Below, one piece after another: positions 4,656 through 62,683 of a stretch of DNA of 64,000 bases. Made by a program: the position numbers and the translations under genes. This DNA comes from Escherichia phage AugustSocin. The stretch is taken from the sequence record MZ501052; one strand, given 5' to 3'. The stretch's first letter is position 1. Every line of letters begins with the position of its first letter. The notes under the pieces were generated by a model, which was not told the origin of the DNA, did no database searches, and saw only the letters and a program-made list of their open reading frames with translations.

Positions 4656-4696
4656 TTTCTAATCTCCGTAATTCTGTATCAGTAGTTGATAGTTGT

Positions 4697-4726
4697 ATAG
4701 TACCACAGCATGCTTTGGTTGTAAAC
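4697..4726 (-). promoter_or_regulatory. T4-type early promoter (-10 TACTAT, 18-nt spacer, -35 GTTTAC, A/T-rich UP element) for motA
   Basis: plus-strand motif tatagtacc...gtaaac...ttttgtgaaaaaaaatttt recurs upstream of many minus-strand genes. Confidence 0.55.
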
Positions 4727-4755
4727 CGTTTTGTGAAAAAAAATTTTAAAATAAA

Positions 4756-4775
4756 AAAGGGAGAGCCGAGGCTCT
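4756..4775 (-). terminator. intrinsic terminator hairpin after 52.1
   Basis: GGGAGAGCC-GA-GGCTCTCCC stem followed by T-run on the minus strand. Confidence 0.55.
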
Positions 4776-8318: not shown

Positions 8319-8346
8319 TTTCCGCTCCTCCGTAGTTGATAGTTGT

Positions 8347-8376
8347 ATAGTACCACGGTCCTTGTGGTATGTAAAC
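8347..8376 (-). promoter_or_regulatory. T4-type early promoter
   Basis: -10 TACTAT, 18-nt spacer, -35 GTTTAC, UP element. Confidence 0.55.
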
Positions 8377-8392
8377 CGTTTTGTGAAAATTT

Positions 8393-8950
8393 TTAAATGG
8401 AAAGATACCATCCGTTGTAGTTGCTTTTTCTTACAACTTTACGAAGGTCTTCTCTATCACCGATGAACTTCGGAGTGTACTGGATGACACCTGGATGAAT
8501 TTCTTTAGTGTTGAATATAATTATACAGTCCGCGACTTGATGATTTAGAATGGGCCCTAGATTTATTCCAGAACCATATGGATACTCTCCGCTGCATCCC
8601 GTTGTTACCGAAATCCAACGCGAGTCAGTTTGATGTGTCTTAACTTCTACACGGAGCCCACAGTATTTTGGATGTGCTAAAACATCCCATGCATATGTAT
8701 ATGGATCATTGACATCTTCTTGGCCTTTATTGACATATCCGCTTAGCCAATCTGCCACCACATACTCGGCATACACTGCGATACGGCATCTTTCGATAAC
8801 TTCTGCCTTATCCTGATTTGGGTTTTGTTTTAAAGAGTATCTCGCAGTATCAGCAATTTTGACCTTCATTTCACTGGTCAAATCACTGTTCGATAGGGTA
8901 AATGTCGGAATCTGAAATAGTCTCTGTAACCCCGGATTCGTTTTCTGCAT
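8393..8950 (-). CDS. denB: endonuclease IV DenB
   Basis: 185-aa ORF; AAGGAAA RBS; size and synteny (rIIB-denB-ndd). Confidence 0.8.
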   Translation of the reverse strand: MQKTNPGLQRLFQIPTFTLSNSDLTSEMKVKIADTARYSLKQNPNQDKAEVIERCRIAVYAEYVVADWLSGYVNKGQEDVNDPYTYAWDVLAHPKYCGLRVEVKTHQTDSRWISVTTGCSGEYPYGSGINLGPILNHQVADCIIIFNTKEIHPGVIQYTPKFIGDREDLRKVVRKSNYNGWYLSI

Positions 8951-16499: not shown

Positions 16500-16542
16500 T
16501 TTATTCTCCAAGTTGTTTTCTGTATCAGTAGTTGATATTGAT

Positions 16543-16572
16543 ATAGTACCATAATCAACTACTGATGTATAT
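16543..16572 (-). promoter_or_regulatory. early-type promoter with divergent -35, -10 bracketed by a 13-bp inverted repeat
   Basis: -10 TACTAT conserved; -35 position reads ATATAC; arms atcagtagttgat / atcaactactgat. Confidence 0.4.
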
Positions 16573-16596
16573 AGTTTTATGAAAAAATTTTAAACT

Positions 16597-17088
16597 TTAT
16601 GCATAGCGAGCTTTGCTATAGTGTTTAATCCAACTTTCAGGAATGACTTTGTATGTTCCTAAAAATACCGCGTTGTATAACTTAACGCCATCTTCTACCC
16701 ATTGATCAGTAATGTATGCACACATAGCGCGAGTACGGTTAACAACACCTTCCTCACCTTCAGTAAATTCAAACTCATAAGGAGCAACGAACTTAATAGC
16801 CTGACCGAGTTTCCACTTAAAGTCTACACCTACATGCGAAGTATCAATCGTTTCAATTCCTTTAGCAGGAACAGCTTTCAAAAACGCAGATTCAAGAAAT
16901 TTCGCACGAACATAGCCAAACTGAGGTTTAGACTTTCCATCTTTAGGAATGATACGCACTTTTACTTCAGAATCTTCATCTTTAACACCGTGTTTAAGCT
17001 GAATGCTTACAACTTCGACCAATTTTCCTGCCGCTTTAGAGCGGGATTTATCAGATACACGAGCTAATTCACCAATATTAATAATCAT
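16597..17088 (-). CDS. hypothetical protein (163 aa), motB position
   Basis: ORF-track ORF; C-terminal domain paralogous to the next gene upstream. Confidence 0.55.
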   Translation of the reverse strand: MIINIGELARVSDKSRSKAAGKLVEVVSIQLKHGVKDEDSEVKVRIIPKDGKSKPQFGYVRAKFLESAFLKAVPAKGIETIDTSHVGVDFKWKLGQAIKFVAPYEFEFTEGEEGVVNRTRAMCAYITDQWVEDGVKLYNAVFLGTYKVIPESWIKHYSKARYA

Positions 17089-20913: not shown

Positions 20914-21221
20914 CGTAAATTCCCTGCAATTGGTATACTAACAATACGCCCAGTATCTAAAATTCGCCGATATAATCTTTGTGTGTCTACATCAGGCTTA
21001 ACATGTTTAACTTCTATTTTATTAAACCAAAACTTGCGTGGAGTCTCAACTAATCTCGGAATTCCCATACCTAAAGCTAGTCGATACTGCTCTTTAAGAG
21101 TAGTAAATACTTTATCAGCAATCTCCCTTTCAAAAAATACAGCAGGGCGATGTTCATCAAGCGGAACTGGCGCCGTAAATCCATCTTTATCTCTATAAAC
21201 TATCGCATATACATAAAACAT
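20910..21221 (-). CDS. hypothetical protein (103 aa), dda.1 position
   Basis: ORF-track ORF; stop/start overlap with dda. Confidence 0.5.
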   Translation of the reverse strand: MFYVYAIVYRDKDGFTAPVPLDEHRPAVFFEREIADKVFTTLKEQYRLALGMGIPRLVETPRKFWFNKIEVKHVKPDVDTQRLYRRILDTGRIVSIPIAGNLR

Positions 21222-21222
21222 A

Positions 21223-21969
21223 TTATCCTCGGATAAGTTTAAAAATTGAACAATTTAGCGGGTATCCTCTTTTCAGTTTAAGTTTATCAATAAAAGACAA
21301 GTTTTGATACCGCTCTACACCTTGAATAATTTTATCACACATATCATATTGCATTTCTGCTTCTGACAACTTTTTCACAGTTTTCCAATCCGAGCCTTTA
21401 AGAAGAACGTTCAATTTAACAACTTCAGTTCCTTCTGCTATACGAGAACCATCAATACGAGCTTTGAGTGCTACAATCGTTAGCTTAACGTCAGAGGTCT
21501 GTTTTGATTTAGAAAGCTGAGAAATGTGCTCAATTCGGTTTTCACGTTTTTTCTGTATAGCTTTAATTTGATTATAAGTCTTTTTGATTTTAGCCCATTT
21601 CTTTTCATCTAAATTTAGTTTATAAACTTTTTTCGCAGATGAACGACCAATTCGCAAAGCAAATAAATCACGCTTTTCAATCAACTCTTCTAAAGTATAA
21701 TCAGAACGAAATGTATTGTACTTTTTCTTTACTGCAATAACATTCCCTTTAATGTATCCAACGTTATTATCAAAACGTTCTAATGATAATTTCTCTCCTT
21801 CAATACGATTATCAAAAGGTTCTCCTGAGTAAGCGCAAACTTTCTGATCTAAAATGTTCTTAATGTAATTGAAGTCTAAGTTAAAATCTTTAGAACGTCT
21901 TTTAGCAGATGCCTGAGTGTGCTCTAGACGACGTGTAATTTTACGAATTTGATTTTTAGACAGTTTCAT
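21223..21969 (-). CDS. srd: Srd-like protein (sigma-factor-related)
   Basis: 248-aa basic ORF; size and position between dda.1 and modA. Confidence 0.6.
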   Translation of the reverse strand: MKLSKNQIRKITRRLEHTQASAKRRSKDFNLDFNYIKNILDQKVCAYSGEPFDNRIEGEKLSLERFDNNVGYIKGNVIAVKKKYNTFRSDYTLEELIEKRDLFALRIGRSSAKKVYKLNLDEKKWAKIKKTYNQIKAIQKKRENRIEHISQLSKSKQTSDVKLTIVALKARIDGSRIAEGTEVVKLNVLLKGSDWKTVKKLSEAEMQYDMCDKIIQGVERYQNLSFIDKLKLKRGYPLNCSIFKLIRG

Positions 21970-25511: not shown

Positions 25512-25681
25512 ACCACCTATTTCTGTAGGCGTAAACATTGCAGCATTCTTAGTTTTCCAAGTTGCTGCATCGGAAACTACATCAGAATAAGCTGCTACCA
25601 CCTATTTCTGTAGGCGTAAACATTGCAGCATTCTTAGTTTTCCAAGTTGCTGCATCGGAAACTACATCAGAATAAGCTGCT
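25512..25681. repeat. perfect 85-bp tandem direct duplication (2 copies) spanning the soc 3' end
   Basis: 25512..25596 and 25597..25681 identical on base-by-base comparison. Confidence 0.85.
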
Positions 25682-25830
25682 TTTTCTGACGGAAAGATTT
25701 GATAATGAGAATCTGCAATACGGTGTTCATTTGAATATACATCAAATGCTACAGAAACTTCCATACCTTTAACTTCTTTGCCTTCACCTGCTGGATGAGT
25801 AAAGGTCTTGATGTTAACGAAACCACCCAT
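25582..25830 (-). CDS. soc: small outer capsid protein Soc (divergent; C-terminus altered by the duplication)
   Basis: 82-aa ORF with VNIKTF, VSVAF and HYQxFPSEKAAYS blocks; AAGGAG RBS; late promoter upstream. Confidence 0.8.
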   Translation of the reverse strand: MGGFVNIKTFTHPAGEGKEVKGMEVSVAFDVYSNEHRIADSHYQIFPSEKAAYSDVVSDAATWKTKNAAMFTPTEIGGSSLF

Positions 25831-26601: not shown

Positions 26602-26802
26602 ATGGTACAAAAATTAATGGCACTTGTTAATGCCATCAAAGGTAATAAAAAGCGTATAGCTTTTACTATTTCTGCTATGGTAGGAATTTTACTCTGGAAC
26701 TTTATTTTATCACCTGTTGCAATTGCACATGGTATTAATATTCCAGTAGTTACTCTTGATACGTTCGTAGATTTAGCATTTGCTTTAGTTGGGTTAATTT
26801 AA
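26602..26802 (+). CDS. hypothetical small hydrophobic protein (66 aa) on the plus strand
   Basis: strong AAGGAGG RBS 5 nt before the ATG; stop overlaps the gene 61 stop (convergent). Confidence 0.4.
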   Translation: MVQKLMALVNAIKGNKKRIAFTISAMVGILLWNFILSPVAIAHGINIPVVTLDTFVDLAFALVGLI

Positions 26803-27827
26803 ATCTTAGCATATTTAGATAGCCGCATTTTAGCCATCAACCCCTGTGCAATATTATTTTTCATATATTCCATAATTTGTTCAGGGGTTGCACCTTCCTT
26901 TCTAATCATATCATTAACATCTTTTGATTTCCAGGGAGATTTATCCCAAAACATAACCCTTTCTCCTGCATCAACTAATTTAGTCATTCGCTTAATAGTG
27001 TCAGGATGACGAGGTTCATTATCTAAAACCCACACACGTCTATCTTTAAATGGAACAACTTCTAGGTCTAATTGACCACCCGTAATAGCTATACCATTTT
27101 CAATAAAAAGTGAATCTATAGGTCCTTCTAGAACATATACATCACCATCTTTAACTCGTTCGACTCCATAGATTTTTGTTGCCTCAGGATAAGCTTTGAT
27201 GGTGATATATTTTTGAGGAGCATCTTTCTTTAATGCACGTCCTTGAAAAGACTCAGCTTTTCCATTAGCATTATAAATTGGAATAACAAGACGAGGCTCA
27301 GGTATTTCCTTTTTATATGTTCCTGGTGCTATGCTATTAACTAATTTAGGCCATTCAGTTGTAAACCAAAGATATTTCCATTTATCCTTTGGAATACAAC
27401 GAGCTTTTACATATTTTATAATTGGATGGTCTTCCGCCAGTTTATCTAATCTAACACATGACGGAAGAGATTTAATTATTTTCTTCTCAGGTTGTTTAGG
27501 AAGTTCTTTAGGTTTTTCTACTGGACGACTTTTACCTTTTTCTTTTCTTATTTCAAAGATATACTCACGATATAAATCGGGTTCAAACTCCTTTAAATAT
27601 ATTCCGATTGGTGCATGATAGTTACAGTTATAACAATGAATATTTCCTTCATTATTATCACCATAATACCATCCACGAGCTTTATTCTGATCGGTTTTTG
27701 AATCTCCACAAACAGGGCATCTAAACCGCAATTTAAAAGTTGAACTATTATTTACTTGTGTGAATTTAGGTAAATGAGCTAATGCACGATACGCAAACTC
27801 ATTATCAATCCAAGGTATTGATGACAT
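26799..27827 (-). CDS. 61: DNA primase gp61
   Basis: 342-aa ORF; N-terminal zinc ribbon (CPVCGDS...CYNCNYH) and Toprim region. Confidence 0.92.
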   Translation of the reverse strand: MSSIPWIDNEFAYRALAHLPKFTQVNNSSTFKLRFRCPVCGDSKTDQNKARGWYYGDNNEGNIHCYNCNYHAPIGIYLKEFEPDLYREYIFEIRKEKGKSRPVEKPKELPKQPEKKIIKSLPSCVRLDKLAEDHPIIKYVKARCIPKDKWKYLWFTTEWPKLVNSIAPGTYKKEIPEPRLVIPIYNANGKAESFQGRALKKDAPQKYITIKAYPEATKIYGVERVKDGDVYVLEGPIDSLFIENGIAITGGQLDLEVVPFKDRRVWVLDNEPRHPDTIKRMTKLVDAGERVMFWDKSPWKSKDVNDMIRKEGATPEQIMEYMKNNIAQGLMAKMRLSKYAKI

Positions 27828-27829
27828 TT

Positions 27830-27994
27830 TTACTCTTCTTTTTCTTTAGATTCCTCTTTCTTCTTTTTAGGAATCTGTTCAGGACCTTTATTTACTACAG
27901 CGCCCGACGTTGTTCCAGTAGAGATATTTTCAGGATTACCACCTGAATCTCCAGCTACCATATCTTCTTTAATAAATTCTTTATATGTTTTCAT
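27830..27994 (-). CDS. small lysine-rich protein (54 aa)
   Basis: hand-translated MKTYKEFIKED...; GAGG RBS; sits inside a repeated junction sequence. Confidence 0.4.
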   Translation of the reverse strand: MKTYKEFIKEDMVAGDSGGNPENISTGTTSGAVVNKGPEQIPKKKKEESKEKEE

Positions 27995-27995
27995 A

Positions 27996-28352
27996 TTAAC
28001 CTCTATTCATAAAAGCATTAAAAATTTGGTCATCAATAGATGGCACAGTAATATTTTCTGCATCATTTAGCAAATCATTAATTTCATCAGATAGCATAAC
28101 ACATGTGCCTTTATTTCCTGTAATTGTTACTGCACAATTACGAACGTTTTCTTTATCAAATTTTAGGTTAATATTTTCGTAGTGAAAATCCTTTAATGCC
28201 GAATATATCTTTAAAATGAAATTGTCTTTTACTACAATAAACCCAACCTCACTATTAAAACGTGGTTCATGGAAACTGTAATAAACCTTTTCATCTATAA
28301 AATCGTATGAAATTTTTTCCATTTTTAAATATGAAAATTCAGAACTATACAT
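27996..28352 (-). CDS. hypothetical protein (118 aa), paralog of the next gene at the C-terminus
   Basis: C-terminus IDDQIFNAFMNRG shared with the 213-aa neighbour. Confidence 0.5.
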   Translation of the reverse strand: MYSSEFSYLKMEKISYDFIDEKVYYSFHEPRFNSEVGFIVVKDNFILKIYSALKDFHYENINLKFDKENVRNCAVTITGNKGTCVMLSDEINDLLNDAENITVPSIDDQIFNAFMNRG

Positions 28353-28353
28353 A

Positions 28354-28995
28354 TTAACCTTTATTCATAAAAGCATTAAAAATTTGATCGTCAATAGAAA
28401 CATTTACTTTAGACTGTTTTTCTGATGGTAATTCATATCCACATATTACAATTTTGTGATCAATATCAAAATACACAGAAGCAATATGATTAATGATGTT
28501 TTCAGTAAAGTCTAAATCAACATCAATATCTTTTTGACCACAGCCCAAAGGATAAATAATGCGAGTAATTCGATTATCTTTAACAAATATTCCACCGACA
28601 TACTCTGTGCTGCGTTTAAAGTTTACACGTTTCCTAAATGAAAAATATTCAGGTTCTTTATGAGCCCGACTCATAGGACACAATGAGTAGCTAGAATAAG
28701 AGATGTCAAATCCTACACCTTCAATATGAGCCAACGCGTCATGATTAAACCAATTATAATCATATGCCAAATCCATTATATTGTAATATGTGAAAGGCAC
28801 CGGATTAACATCATGTGTTGTACCTTTAAAATCTGCCCAGGCAACGATTTCGTTATCTTTAACAATTACAAAAATTGTGTCAATAAGATATCCACGGTTA
28901 TTTTCATCAGGCGTTATATTATAACATTGTGCATCAGGAAATTTACCGTATTTAAACGGTGGATTTTTGTGCATATAATAAATCATATTATTCAC
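28354..28995 (-). CDS. hypothetical protein (213 aa)
   Basis: ORF-track ORF; C-terminus SIDDQIFNAFMNKG. Confidence 0.55.
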   Translation of the reverse strand: MNNMIYYMHKNPPFKYGKFPDAQCYNITPDENNRGYLIDTIFVIVKDNEIVAWADFKGTTHDVNPVPFTYYNIMDLAYDYNWFNHDALAHIEGVGFDISYSSYSLCPMSRAHKEPEYFSFRKRVNFKRSTEYVGGIFVKDNRITRIIYPLGCGQKDIDVDLDFTENIINHIASVYFDIDHKIVICGYELPSEKQSKVNVSIDDQIFNAFMNKG

Positions 28996-29281
28996 CTGTG
29001 ATTTCGGTTACGATATTTTTGTTATTAAAGTTTTTATCGCAATACAGAACATAATTATACTGCATTACACCACCAGACTTAAGTTGTTTTTGCACTTCAG
29101 CTTTCATTTTAGGACGATCGCGCTCAACAATATTCATAATATCCGCTTCAATTTGAGTTTCAACTTCAGTCTGATCTACAGTCATAGACCATTCACACAA
29201 GTCTTTATCATATCCTGCCATAGCAGGCTGAGCAGCACAAGAAGCCAAAGTAAAAATTGTAGCAAAAATAAATTTTTTCAT
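28988..29281 (-). CDS. sp: Spackle periplasmic protein
   Basis: 97-aa ORF with signal peptide MKKFIFATIFTLASCAAQPAMA; matches recalled T4 Sp. Confidence 0.85.
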   Translation of the reverse strand: MKKFIFATIFTLASCAAQPAMAGYDKDLCEWSMTVDQTEVETQIEADIMNIVERDRPKMKAEVQKQLKSGGVMQYNYVLYCDKNFNNKNIVTEITGE

Positions 29282-29341
29282 GATAATCTCCTCAGTAGTT
29301 TATGTTTATATAGTATCTCAATTTCCAACAAAAGTAAACAG

Positions 29342-29599
29342 CTATTTTAAAACTTCTGCATAATCACATGTTACAAACTGTTTCTCTAGCTTAACGATCT
29401 TACGAAAATGCCTTTTACACTGACGAATCTGCCTCTTCGTAGGACGTACAACAAACTTGATAAATTCCACTCGACCAAATGGAGGGCTTTCTTCTGCTGG
29501 AATATCTAACACCAATTCCCATGTATCCGCAATAAGTGCTTTGAATTGAGTATTTTTCCTGACGTTATACGGAGTAGGTTTAAATAAAACAATATGCAT
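29342..29599 (-). CDS. hypothetical basic protein (85 aa), 61.4 position
   Basis: ORF-track ORF. Confidence 0.5.
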   Translation of the reverse strand: MHIVLFKPTPYNVRKNTQFKALIADTWELVLDIPAEESPPFGRVEFIKFVVRPTKRQIRQCKRHFRKIVKLEKQFVTCDYAEVLK

Positions 29600-29600
29600 A

Positions 29601-29783
29601 TTATCCTCGGCAATCTACTTCACATACTTTCTTGTCATCAATGAAAGCTTTAACTAATGCTTTATTAACTTCAGCATATTGAGTAGTAGCCCATTGAACG
29701 TCATCTTTCATCATTGTGATTTCTTTAGTAAACATGTTTTCATTCTTAAACCACCCCATAAAAACTACCTTTACCAATTCCAT
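29601..29783 (-). CDS. dmd: Dmd (discriminator of mRNA degradation; antitoxin against RnlA/LsoA)
   Basis: 60-aa ORF MELVKVVFMGWFKNE...; matches recalled T4 Dmd; early promoter upstream. Confidence 0.85.
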   Translation of the reverse strand: MELVKVVFMGWFKNENMFTKEITMMKDDVQWATTQYAEVNKALVKAFIDDKKVCEVDCRG

Positions 29784-29812
29784 AACAATCTCCTCATTTA
29801 ACCAACAAGACT

Positions 29813-29842
29813 ACTATACCATAGTCTTGTCAGTTTGTAAAC
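29813..29842 (-). promoter_or_regulatory. T4-type early promoter for dmd
   Basis: -10 TATAGT, 18-nt spacer, -35 GTTTAC. Confidence 0.5.
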
Positions 29843-31269
29843 TAAAATTTTAATTCATTTGCCAAAGCATCTAACTGAGCTCGAGTGGATTCATTTCTTT
29901 GATAGCGATTCTGTTCAGCCTGAATCTGTTGTGAACCTGCTACTTCACTCACTTCAGTTGGAGTAGAATCTTGTTCAATTTCTACCCATTTCTGATTTCC
30001 CTTTTGAACACCCATTAAAAACTTATTCCACTTATTCTTATCGCCATATCGTGATTTGATTTGCTTAATGAGTTGTTGTTCAGCAGCTGCTAGCTCCTCG
30101 GTTTCAATGACCGCAAGCATAAAATCAGCTGTTGCTGGAAGACCAGCAGATTCTGCAATATCGCTCATGTTAACATCGGAAGAGTCCCAAGCTTGTTTAC
30201 CGACCTGTGCTGCAGTCCAAAGAACAGTTTCGGTTTCAACAGCCAGAGCACGCAATTCCTCTGCAATAGCTTTAACAGTTGTGTAACTATTTTCTGAATA
30301 AACTCTGATGCGGCAAGATTTACAAATACCTAGATAGTCGACAATAATGATTGTTGGAACAAAATTCTTCTTGAGCTTCAATTCATTCAAGAGAGACCTG
30401 AATGTGTTAGCATCTGCCCCACCAGTGGGATACTGTTTAACGATTAAACGACCAAGAGTAGATTTCTCACGCCATTTTTCCATTTTTCCTTTATACTCAG
30501 CGTAAGAAATATGCCCATCATCAATGTCATCAAGAGAAACATCAAGCATATTAGCATCAATACGCTTAGCACAGACTTCTTCTGCCATTTCCATGGAAAT
30601 GTAAAGAACATTATGTCCGAGCTGTAAATAATCTGCTGCTAATGAACACAATCCTAATGATTTACCAACGTTAACGCCAGCCATTAAAACGTTCAGTGTT
30701 CCAGTCTCAGCTCCGCCTTTAGTAATTTTGTTTAGAATTCTGAGTTTAAATGGAACCTTACGAGCTTTATTCATATAAGATAGCCAACGTGCTTCGTAGT
30801 CATCCATCCAATCATGACCAACGTAACTATCAAATGAAATTGATAATGCTTGGCGCATGATGTCAGGAATAGCACCAACATCCGGCATTTTCTTATTTCG
30901 TTTTTCCGGAGGAAGTTCAGCATTAGTTTGAATTTCGATTATTTTAGACGTAGCATTAAACATCGCCCTTTGCTGAACATATTTTTCTGTTTCTTTTACT
31001 AACCAGCTGTGGTCTTCCGGAGAATCAGCTAGTTTTGAAATAAGTGTTTTTACACCAGAATATTCTGTTTCAGTAAATGAACTATTTTCTAATGCAACAT
31101 TTAACGCATTAATAGATGGAACGCTATGATACTCATTAACATGAGATTTAATTAATTTGAATGTATTTTTAGCTGGACCACTTTCAAAATATTCTGAATC
31201 CATATATGGCCAAACTTTTGAAAAATAAGCTTGATCAAATATGAGATGAGAAAGAATAATTTCTACCAC
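29842..31269 (-). CDS. 41: replicative DNA helicase gp41 (DnaB-like)
   Basis: 475-aa ORF; Walker A GVNVGKS; size and synteny. Confidence 0.95.
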   Translation of the reverse strand: MVEIILSHLIFDQAYFSKVWPYMDSEYFESGPAKNTFKLIKSHVNEYHSVPSINALNVALENSSFTETEYSGVKTLISKLADSPEDHSWLVKETEKYVQQRAMFNATSKIIEIQTNAELPPEKRNKKMPDVGAIPDIMRQALSISFDSYVGHDWMDDYEARWLSYMNKARKVPFKLRILNKITKGGAETGTLNVLMAGVNVGKSLGLCSLAADYLQLGHNVLYISMEMAEEVCAKRIDANMLDVSLDDIDDGHISYAEYKGKMEKWREKSTLGRLIVKQYPTGGADANTFRSLLNELKLKKNFVPTIIIVDYLGICKSCRIRVYSENSYTTVKAIAEELRALAVETETVLWTAAQVGKQAWDSSDVNMSDIAESAGLPATADFMLAVIETEELAAAEQQLIKQIKSRYGDKNKWNKFLMGVQKGNQKWVEIEQDSTPTEVSEVAGSQQIQAEQNRYQRNESTRAQLDALANELKF

Positions 31270-36126: not shown

Positions 36127-36160
36127 TTTATTCTCCAAATCCGTATTAGTTGATAGTTGT

Positions 36161-36190
36161 ATAGTACCATGGAAGAACAGTCTTGTAAAC
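36161..36190 (-). promoter_or_regulatory. T4-type early promoter
   Basis: -10 TACTAT, 18-nt spacer, -35 GTTTAC, UP element. Confidence 0.55.
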
Positions 36191-36274
36191 AGTTTTGTGA
36201 AAATTTTTTAGGGAATTCTAAAGGTCCAGAATCATCTGTTTTTCATAAGTATAGATTTATATTACTTGTATGAA

Positions 36275-50395: not shown

Positions 50396-50425
50396 ATCAA
50401 TTCCTCAAAGGTAATTCATATGTTA

Positions 50426-50455
50426 ATAATACCACGGTTTGAACCTGTTGTAAAC
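50426..50455 (-). promoter_or_regulatory. T4-type early promoter
   Basis: -10 TATTAT, 18-nt spacer, -35 GTTTAC. Confidence 0.5.
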
Positions 50456-50535
50456 AACTTTGTGAAAAATATTTCAGGGAATGATAAGAAAGGAACGATA
50501 GCTTAGAATGGTAATATACAGAATGTGAGAAAGAA

Positions 50536-61137: not shown

Positions 61138-61165
61138 TTTCTGTTCCTCCGTAGTTGATAGTTGT

Positions 61166-61195
61166 ATAGTACCACAGAGGAACAGTCTTGTAAAC
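61166..61195 (-). promoter_or_regulatory. T4-type early promoter
   Basis: -10 TACTAT, 18-nt spacer, -35 GTTTAC. Confidence 0.55.
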
Positions 61196-61197
61196 CA

Positions 61198-61512
61198 CTA
61201 AAAGAAACTTCTTTCACAATTTTTTCCACTGAACCACGCGCTAACCGCTTTCTTAGTCTCAGGAGCAGTGTTATCCATAAACCATTCAAAGGCAGCCTTT
61301 TTATGATTCTGGAGGGCTTCTCGGGCTTTAATCTGCTCACGGTCTATTAACACTAACATATGAGCCTTTCTTGTCACCATGGGCTTCTTATGATTTTTTG
61401 AATACTCCCAATCATTTGTCCAACGCATTGTCGTTGCGAACTGATGAACCGCGTCTTTAATTTTAGTTTCGTAAATTTCACGAGCCTTTGAGTATAACAT
61501 CACTACCTCCAT
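61198..61512 (-). CDS. hypothetical protein (104 aa)
   Basis: ORF-track ORF. Confidence 0.45.
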   Translation of the reverse strand: MEVVMLYSKAREIYETKIKDAVHQFATTMRWTNDWEYSKNHKKPMVTRKAHMLVLIDREQIKAREALQNHKKAAFEWFMDNTAPETKKAVSAWFSGKNCERSFF

Positions 61513-62570: not shown

Positions 62571-62604
62571 TTTATTCTCCAAATCCGTATCAGTTGATAG
62601 TTGT

Positions 62605-62634
62605 ATAGTACCATAAAGCTTTATGCTTGTAAAC
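62605..62634 (-). promoter_or_regulatory. T4-type early promoter
   Basis: -10 TACTAT, 18-nt spacer, -35 GTTTAC, UP element. Confidence 0.55.
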
Positions 62635-62663
62635 AGTTTTGTGAAAAATTTTTGAAATAAAAA

Positions 62664-62683
62664 AGGGAGCCCGAAGGCTCCCT
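62664..62683 (-). terminator. tetraloop hairpin downstream of the nucleotidyltransferase-like gene
   Basis: GGGAGCC-CGAA-GGCTCCC with A/T-rich flanks. Confidence 0.5.

Follow-up and report, generated by a model that had tools for sequence, protein, structure and literature searches.

Conserved boundary sequences, or "linkers," between the modules of lambdoid phages are said to have been put forward in the modular theory of Susskind and Botstein as preferred crossover points. In T4-type phages, modular shuffling has been described for promoter-early stem-loop (PeSL) cassettes (Arbiol et al. 2010, PMC2839356; Comeau et al. 2014, PMC4122927). T4 also amplifies and deletes DNA at microhomologies of 6-10 bp flanking dmd-tifA, in a region that has been named the "anti-TA island," after toxin-antitoxin (TA) systems (10.1101/2022.04.14.488369). 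Two genes away lies the subject of this work, a direct repeat in Escherichia phage AugustSocin (sequence record MZ501052), of which we analyzed one stretch of 64,000 nucleotides (nt), hereafter the window. The repeat closes two consecutive genes, adfA and a gene of 118 amino acids (aa), and includes the ribosome-binding site (RBS) and the start codon of whichever gene follows. AdfA is anti-DarT factor A, the T4 protein gp61.2 (LeRoux et al. 2022, as cited in PMC11257639). A His at AdfA position 164 allows DarT1 to be bound and neutralized, deletion of adfA from T4 gave no phenotype against the DarTG1 used in that study, and T2 was described as lacking the gene (PMC11257639). We consider it likely that tandem genes of the AdfA group share a 3' module, and that the repeat formed in this way then bounds the natural gain and loss of a gene cassette.

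A repeat search found the direct repeat at 27992-28040 and 28350-28398 (49 nt, 46/49 identical, 94%), with a spacing of 358 nt and no other long repeat between 27000 and 30000. Its 30-nt core, with up to 3 mismatches allowed, occurs at just two sites in the window, and 100 shuffles gave no match. Every gene of the region is carried by the minus strand. Read on this strand, both copies give TCT ATT GAY GAY CAA ATT TTT AAT GCT TTT ATG AAT A(G/A)A GGT TAA T ATG, i.e., the final 14 codons of one gene (SIDDQIFNAFMN(R/K)G) with a Shine-Dalgarno sequence (SD), the stop TAA, one base, and the ATG of the next gene. The features concerned are the following.

28350-28398, minus strand: repeat copy R1, with the adfA end SIDDQIFNAFMNKG, a weaker SD (AAGG), TAA, one base and the ATG of the 118-aa gene
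27992-28040, minus strand: repeat copy R2, with the end of the 118-aa gene SIDDQIFNAFMNRG, the SD GAGG, TAA, one base and the ATG of 61.1
28354-28986, minus strand: adfA (T4 gene 61.2, anti-DarT factor A), 210 aa; an upstream GTG at 28995 gives 213 aa (28354-28995)
27996-28352, minus strand: the 118-aa gene, RB32ORF033c, called "61.2" in the T2 annotation; a cassette present in some relatives and absent from others
27830-27994, minus strand: 61.1, 54 aa, with its RBS and ATG inside copy R2
28033-28390: the 358-bp unit, made of the body of the 118-aa gene and one repeat copy, absent from G157lw and from T4-type genomes

The two copies differ at 3 positions, which correspond to two synonymous Asp codons and to the Lys/Arg exchange. 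The last 12 nt, (G/A)AGGTTAATATG, form a generic translational-coupling junction of T4: near-identical GAGG(A/T)TAATATG junctions are present elsewhere in the window, e.g., at 29597-29608 and 21219-21230, and the sp-adfA junction GGTGAATAATATG has the same TAA-N-ATG design. An earlier note on this DNA had reported near-identical 3' ends, including the RBS and the next ATG, on the 118-aa and 213-aa open reading frames (ORFs), and this was borne out over the whole 49 nt. It placed the copies at 27991-28040 and 28351-28400, which gives their location correctly with limits shifted by 1-2 nt, and it saw a GAGG RBS in both, which is right before 61.1; the one before the 118-aa gene is AAGG. The 213-aa ORF is indeed present, and uses the upstream GTG. 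The true start of adfA is probably the ATG at 28986, because the database homologues of AdfA are 210 aa long, all beginning at the equivalent of this codon. Finally, the two genes had been called paralogous, a term that applies mainly to the shared C-terminal end, hereafter the tail: with the tails removed, the 118-aa family and the C-terminal half of AdfA align in hhalign with a probability of 45% and an E value of 2e-4, over 45 columns.

The comparison with relatives reveals cassettes of exactly one repeat period. Between 27460 and 29407 (1.95 kb), 3 mismatches and one lone gap set the window apart from phage vB_EcoM-G157lw; the gap measures exactly 358 bp (28033-28390) and lies inside the repeat. 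The same lone 358-bp gap separates Sf22 from CM8 and EC121. In another genus, the Gaprivervirus contig L024 is short of exactly one unit relative to L016, in which two tails spaced by 361 nt delimit that unit, and the flanks of the two contigs are near-identical. The earlier note had proposed to look for deletion or duplication variants with breakpoints in the repeat, and differences of exactly one period are what would be expected of a cassette bounded by direct repeats. The idea put forward there, of a candidate recombination site that could shuffle or delete the cassette, is thus supported as a candidate mechanism by natural one-unit variants in two genera. A further Gaprivervirus gene, of 63 aa ("MFVLTQF..."), lies downstream of the tails in L016, L015, and L024 and is absent from EAWsc9 (L008). 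The breakpoint of that difference is at AATATG, in the RBS-ATG junction (GGTTAATATG / AACAATATG).

A census of about 500 Tequatrovirus records, the genus to which the window belongs, gave three layouts.

sp-adfA-118-61.1: the window, RB51, Sf22; 156 records with an adfA-to-118 junction
sp-adfA-61.1: T4, EC121, CM8, G157lw; 167-228 records with an adfA-to-61.1 junction, the upper figure being inflated by the joining of separate aligned pieces in genomes with adfA and the 118-aa gene; estimated at about 170-200 records in all
sp-118-61.1: T2, G2540, BF15; 141 records with an sp-to-118 junction

Approximately 30% of the sequenced Tequatrovirus thus have both genes, 40% adfA only, and 30% the 118-aa gene only. 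The first and third layouts add up to 297 records, near the 298 of 655 in which the 118-aa gene was found at a coverage of at least 80%. Alleles of adfA with a T4-like and with a Mosigvirus-like N terminus each occur with and without the 118-aa gene, and the AENITV-type and AEKVAI-type alleles of the latter each occur with and without adfA. Therefore, more than one event, or reassortment, is needed to account for the layouts.

The 1.6 kb surrounding the repeat share 99% identity with Shigella phage Sf23 and 96-98% with RB51, RB68, and AR1. The order of genes on the minus strand is helicase 41, dmd, 61.4 (tifA), sp, the 213-aa ORF, the 118-aa ORF, 61.1, and primase 61, with the genes beyond those given above placed as follows.

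helicase 41: first in the minus-strand order
29601-29783, minus strand: dmd
29342-29599, minus strand: 61.4 (tifA)
28988-29281, minus strand: sp (spackle), the upstream limit of the variable locus
26799-27827, minus strand: primase 61

The 213-aa ORF is AdfA. It matches the AdfA family model (Pfam PF23813) with 453 bits, for a cutoff of 27, over model positions 1-211, and it is 96-98% identical to the database clusters of AdfA. The alignment places a His (TENIINHIASVY; TENNINRIASVY in Mosigvirus ST0) at the position equivalent to RB69 R164H. The gene is a mosaic: its N-terminal 286 nt (28701-28986) are 92% identical to Mosigvirus ST0, with the flanking sp and 61.1 at about 75%, and T4-type adfA matches this 5' part at ~81% over 172 nt only. 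Inter-genus exchange, with a breakpoint inside adfA, would therefore have taken place. The 118-aa protein matches PF23813 at model positions 113-211 only, with 32.2 bits against the same cutoff; matches of the tail alone score 16-21 bits. T2 has a half-length relative of 118 aa with the AdfA tail directly after sp (L002 1501-1853; also L009 and L010). Its sp (L002 1886-2164) has 279 nt, instead of 294 nt elsewhere, and a one-base difference near the 3' end gives the C terminus ...NNKNNHR*. In FL12 and similar records (P0024, P0026, P0027), ORFs of 33 aa match the C terminus of the 118-aa protein; in FL12 the match to the 354-nt gene extends over 353 nt, and this points to a copy that is frameshifted and pseudogenized.

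How could such a repeat generate the layouts? In the mechanism we propose, it would be the 3' module common to a tandem pair of AdfA-group genes within the T-even "anti-toxin-antitoxin island" (41-dmd-tifA-sp-adfA-61.1-61). The module would consist of ~36 nt coding for a helix, under purifying selection at the protein level, and of ~12 nt forming the SD/stop/start coupling junction. With both genes ending in it, head to tail, a 49-bp direct repeat would arise that ends exactly at the ATG. Any crossover between R1 and R2 would then remove or add one whole unit of gene body and junction (358 bp), leaving intact the upstream ORF with its tail and the downstream RBS and start codon. Singer et al. 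1982 reportedly found about 50 bp of homology to be enough for efficient recombination in T4. We infer that the one-unit differences arose by UvsX-type homologous recombination or by replication slippage between the copies, and that occasional gene conversion may keep the Tequatrovirus copies alike. A possible site of crossover between phages with adfA only and phages with the 118-aa gene only is TAGAGGTTAATATG.

This raises an additional question: why does the repeat exist at all? The same tail was found on three kinds of proteins, always encoded just downstream of sp.

AdfA, 208-216 aa: tail-bearing in Tequatrovirus and Mosigvirus
117-125-aa family: tail-bearing; the 118-aa gene of the window, genes of Gaprivervirus, and more distant metagenomic T4-like contigs
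143-148-aa family: tail-bearing in Dhakavirus and Gaprivervirus

An exhaustive search of 1.84 billion representative proteins with a tail profile returned 9 clusters, all within these three families, and no further tail-bearing family. Word-indexed protein searches that started from the 118-aa protein, from AdfA, or from aligned tails gave few clusters, and those obtained from the aligned tails were mostly fragments. Once the tails are removed, the bodies of the three families appear, by profile comparison, barely or not detectably similar. Beyond the alignment of the 118-aa family with the C-terminal half of AdfA given above, hhalign compares the ~146-aa family with AdfA at an E value of 0.04 (probability 1.3%) and with the 118-aa family at 0.017 (2.7%), the latter similarity not being significant. 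The body of the ~146-aa family likewise showed no homology to the N-terminal half of AdfA, where BLASTP aligned the tail only and hhalign gave nothing significant. The tail itself has the consensus (S)(I/V)DDQIFNAFM(N/K)(R/K)G, a short amphipathic C-terminal helix encoded by ~36 nt. Among 21 distinct tail DNAs, 8 of the 9 core codons have synonymous variants (the exception is Met) and the core DDQIFNAFM is unchanged, a count biased by the DNA search pattern, which itself fixed the core peptide, and with which the independent protein search agrees; the pattern scan of IMG/VR yielded 16 loci only. The AlphaFold2 (AF2) model of AdfA (predicted local distance difference test, pLDDT, of 71) shows the tail as a separate short helix (198-206) after a low-confidence linker, preceded by two beta-rich repeats that each have a terminal helix. 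In the model of the 118-aa protein (pLDDT 57) the tail helix (106-116) is at the end. A Foldseek search of the AdfA model against the PDB gave no match with an E value below 0.29, and no fold could be assigned. The motif DDQIFNAF was absent from the literature searched, which contained no mention of the shared tail, of the two shorter tail-bearing families, or of the tandem layout.

These observations point to a functional helix in the tail, kept by strong purifying selection and possibly needed by these anti-defense proteins for binding or packing. In our reading, selection on the peptide explains why the repeat exists, because three families carry the tail on bodies of little or no other similarity that could be detected. 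The 143-148-aa family (e.g., L008 2171-2608, L004 1801-2241, L035 560-991) includes one record annotated as "serine/threonine protein kinase," for which Pfam gives no support. In Gaprivervirus its gene lies upstream of that of the ~120-aa family, an order matching the two halves of AdfA. From this gene order alone one may speculate that a 146-like and a 118-like gene were fused to give AdfA.

Within Tequatrovirus the tail DNA is nevertheless more alike than the peptide calls for. Using the codon usage of 45 long ORFs of the window, 10 of the 12 degenerate tail codons are identical between R1 and R2, where 6.5 were expected (P=0.03), and in the tail pair of Sf22 all 12 are (P=4e-4). Outside the tail, the bodies of adfA and of the 118-aa gene use the same codon at 9 of 23 identical residues, with 11.9 expected, which corresponds to saturation. 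The differences between tandem tails, counted over 45 nt, vary among lineages.

Sf22, Tequatrovirus: 1 nt
L026, Tequatrovirus: 2 nt
window, Tequatrovirus: 3 nt
L015, Gaprivervirus: 3 nt
L016, Gaprivervirus: 7 nt
L008, Gaprivervirus: 9 nt
L035, distant T4-like contig: 12 nt

That the copies are so nearly identical in Tequatrovirus and in L015 suggests that, in some lineages, they have exchanged sequence or undergone conversion recently.

Several observations weigh against a role of the repeat in cassette gain and loss. The data fit a deletion between the repeats and an acquisition from another phage by crossovers in the flanks alike. The variable sites of the surviving repeat show a single parental type in each near-isogenic pair, R2-type at 3/3 sites in G157lw and R1-type at 4/4 in L024; therefore, either the crossover fell in the outermost 8 nt or the state without the cassette is ancestral. 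The chimeric junction that combines the Asp codons of the window's R1 with AGAGG and 61.1 had no exact match, and the best full-length hits carried the 2 expected mismatches. AAAGG (NKG) is present in every adfA+118 junction seen, and AGAGG (NRG) in every adfA-only one. This split fits crossovers upstream of the site, and no less well a tandem junction that arose once; the universal AAAGG suggests such a single origin, spread by ordinary flanking recombination. The layout with the 118-aa gene only has just ~14-18 nt of tail-like sequence before the gene (TAATTAGAGGTTA(A/G)TATG, of which 16/18 nt are like the tail end) and, judging by this junction, is not a product of R1xR2 recombination. A simple microhomology deletion (at TGAATAA or TAATATG) was rejected as its origin, the predicted junction differing from the one observed. 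The tandem tails of L035 and L008 have diverged at most synonymous sites, i.e., homogenization is not general. Lastly, the function of the tail is putative, and confidence in the AF2 models is only moderate or low (pLDDT 71 and 57).

Much of this evidence would be shared by the alternative in which conservation of the peptide and of the RBS and stop-start signals is all that makes the two 3' ends alike. The repeat would then have no part in generating the layouts, which would come from ordinary homologous recombination in flanking genes, between co-infecting phages of different gene content. The invariance of the tail peptide across families and genera, with DNA that varies synonymously, is what it predicts, as are the 9-12 differences in 45 nt between the tandem tails of L008 and L035, the lack of chimeric repeats, and the AAAGG common to all adfA+118 junctions; the mosaicism of adfA shows that flanking recombination is rife. 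Yet it leaves unexplained that the synonymous identity of the Tequatrovirus tails exceeds what the peptide demands, in the window as in Sf22, and that the indels measure exactly one repeat period, in two genera and between near-identical flanks. Recombination of T4 at repeats much shorter than this one is, moreover, on record for the same locus (10.1101/2022.04.14.488369). We regard this alternative as unlikely, though it deserves to be kept in mind.

A function of the nucleotide sequence itself, as an RNA or DNA element (an SD-masking coupling hairpin, a nuclease site, or a promoter) conserved for that reason, seems very unlikely. The 118-to-61.1 junction can form a hairpin in which UCUAUU pairs with AAUAGA, and CC with the GG of the SD (-9.4 kcal/mol, z -1.75), but 13/200 shuffles fold as well, the adfA-to-118 copy has no such hairpin (z +0.95), and the paired bases are synonymously changed in other genera. 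RNA structure was thus rejected as the cause of conservation, the hairpin being weak and in one copy only. No promoter-like (sigma70-like early) site lies in the repeat, the region totaling 14 against 11.8 expected, i.e., chance frequency, and there are no terminator-like sites in the repeat or in the whole of 27700-29900. The identity of the repeat as a PeSL was rejected on the same grounds, since it contains neither promoter nor terminator. That the 3' half of adfA was recently duplicated in tandem to give the 118-aa gene, with the identical end as its least-diverged remnant, is scarcely credible: the two genes are adjacent and co-oriented, the shorter protein aligns to the C-terminal half of AdfA, and divergence along the alignment is the opposite of uniform, but codon matches outside the tail are not above chance (9/23) at an amino acid identity of ~25%, the gene stands alone beside sp in T2-type phages, and the short family is old, with Gaprivervirus orthologues 45% identical and more divergent members in distant T4-like contigs.

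We thus return to the 3' module shared by tandem AdfA-group genes. The repeat would not be a dedicated recombination site; it appears to exist mainly through the conserved peptide and the translational-coupling signal. It is best seen as a by-product of a selected helix and a coupling junction, which happens to make a substrate for the in-frame loss and gain of a cassette.

The window contains other repeats. A perfect tandem duplication of 85 nt (25512-25596 = 25597-25681, 100%) lies in the 3' end of soc, the minus-strand ORF 25582-25830 for the small outer capsid protein. Sf23, CAM-21, and other closest relatives span 415 nt of a 501-nt query and are without the second copy. An addition of 85 nt, a length not divisible by 3, would give Soc the ending ...TPTEIGG+SSLF in place of ...TPTEIGG. 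The duplication could be real and recent, or an assembly artifact. A family of seven copies, AGTTGATAGTTGTATAGTACCA...TGTAAAC (4684-4756, 8334-8406, 16530-16602, 36148-36220, 50413-50485, 61153-61225, and 62592-62664), probably represents early promoters of T4 seen from the other strand, and five GGGCCGAAGCCC hairpins in the window are terminator-like in appearance.

The locus sits in the T-even "anti-TA island" with dmd, tifA, and adfA, and a repeat that adds or removes whole, still-translatable anti-defense genes would be a simple route to presence/absence polymorphism. The analysis flags two uncharacterized families (117-125 aa and 143-148 aa) as bearing the invariant C-terminal helix of AdfA, one of them in T2, and makes the tail a target of mutagenesis for understanding how AdfA-type proteins work. 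A bolder view, which we find rather improbable, is that DDQIFNAFM(N/K)RG is a portable functional peptide (e.g., a toxin- or partner-binding helix) of three otherwise unrelated anti-defense families, that the tail code with its RBS, stop, and start forms a seamless in-frame exchange junction for anti-toxin cassettes between sp and 61.1, and that the 118-aa and ~146-aa families are anti-DarT or anti-TA factors. If true, the junction would be a coding-sequence counterpart of PeSLs or of the attC sites of integrons. We see the novelty as modest, a coding-tail version of the repeat-mediated shuffling known in T4-type phages. It does not overturn existing views of the plasticity of T4 genomes and provides a specific, testable instance of it.

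Among known systems, the shuffling of PeSLs is the closest concept. There too, short repeats flank small nonessential ORFs, close relatives differ by the ORF between two copies, and the mechanism put forward is recombination between copies that lie close together. PeSLs are, however, intergenic, with a strong sigma70-like promoter and a terminator stem-loop, whereas the repeat of the window is made of a coding tail with RBS, stop, and start. PeSLs supply transcription signals; an exchange at the window's repeat would be in frame and keep translational coupling. The linkers of lambdoid phages are also short conserved sequences at gene boundaries, proposed to serve module exchange, but they act between genomes and are intergenic, while the boundary described here is a coding tail duplicated within one genome. 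Concerning AdfA, the window carries a full-length adfA with His at the position tied to DarT1 neutralization, and a 118-aa gene above the Pfam threshold for the C-terminal half; T2, described as being without adfA (PMC11257639), yet carries the 118-aa relative. The microhomology events at dmd-tifA (Srikant, Guegler, and Laub 2022; 10.1101/2022.04.14.488369) concern the same locus, two genes upstream, where repeats flank anti-defense genes and whole genes are gained or lost by recombination. They differ in that those repeats are fortuitous, of 6-10 bp, and were acted upon under laboratory selection, whereas the repeat of the window spans 49 bp, is conserved and constrained, and is associated with standing polymorphism in natural isolates.

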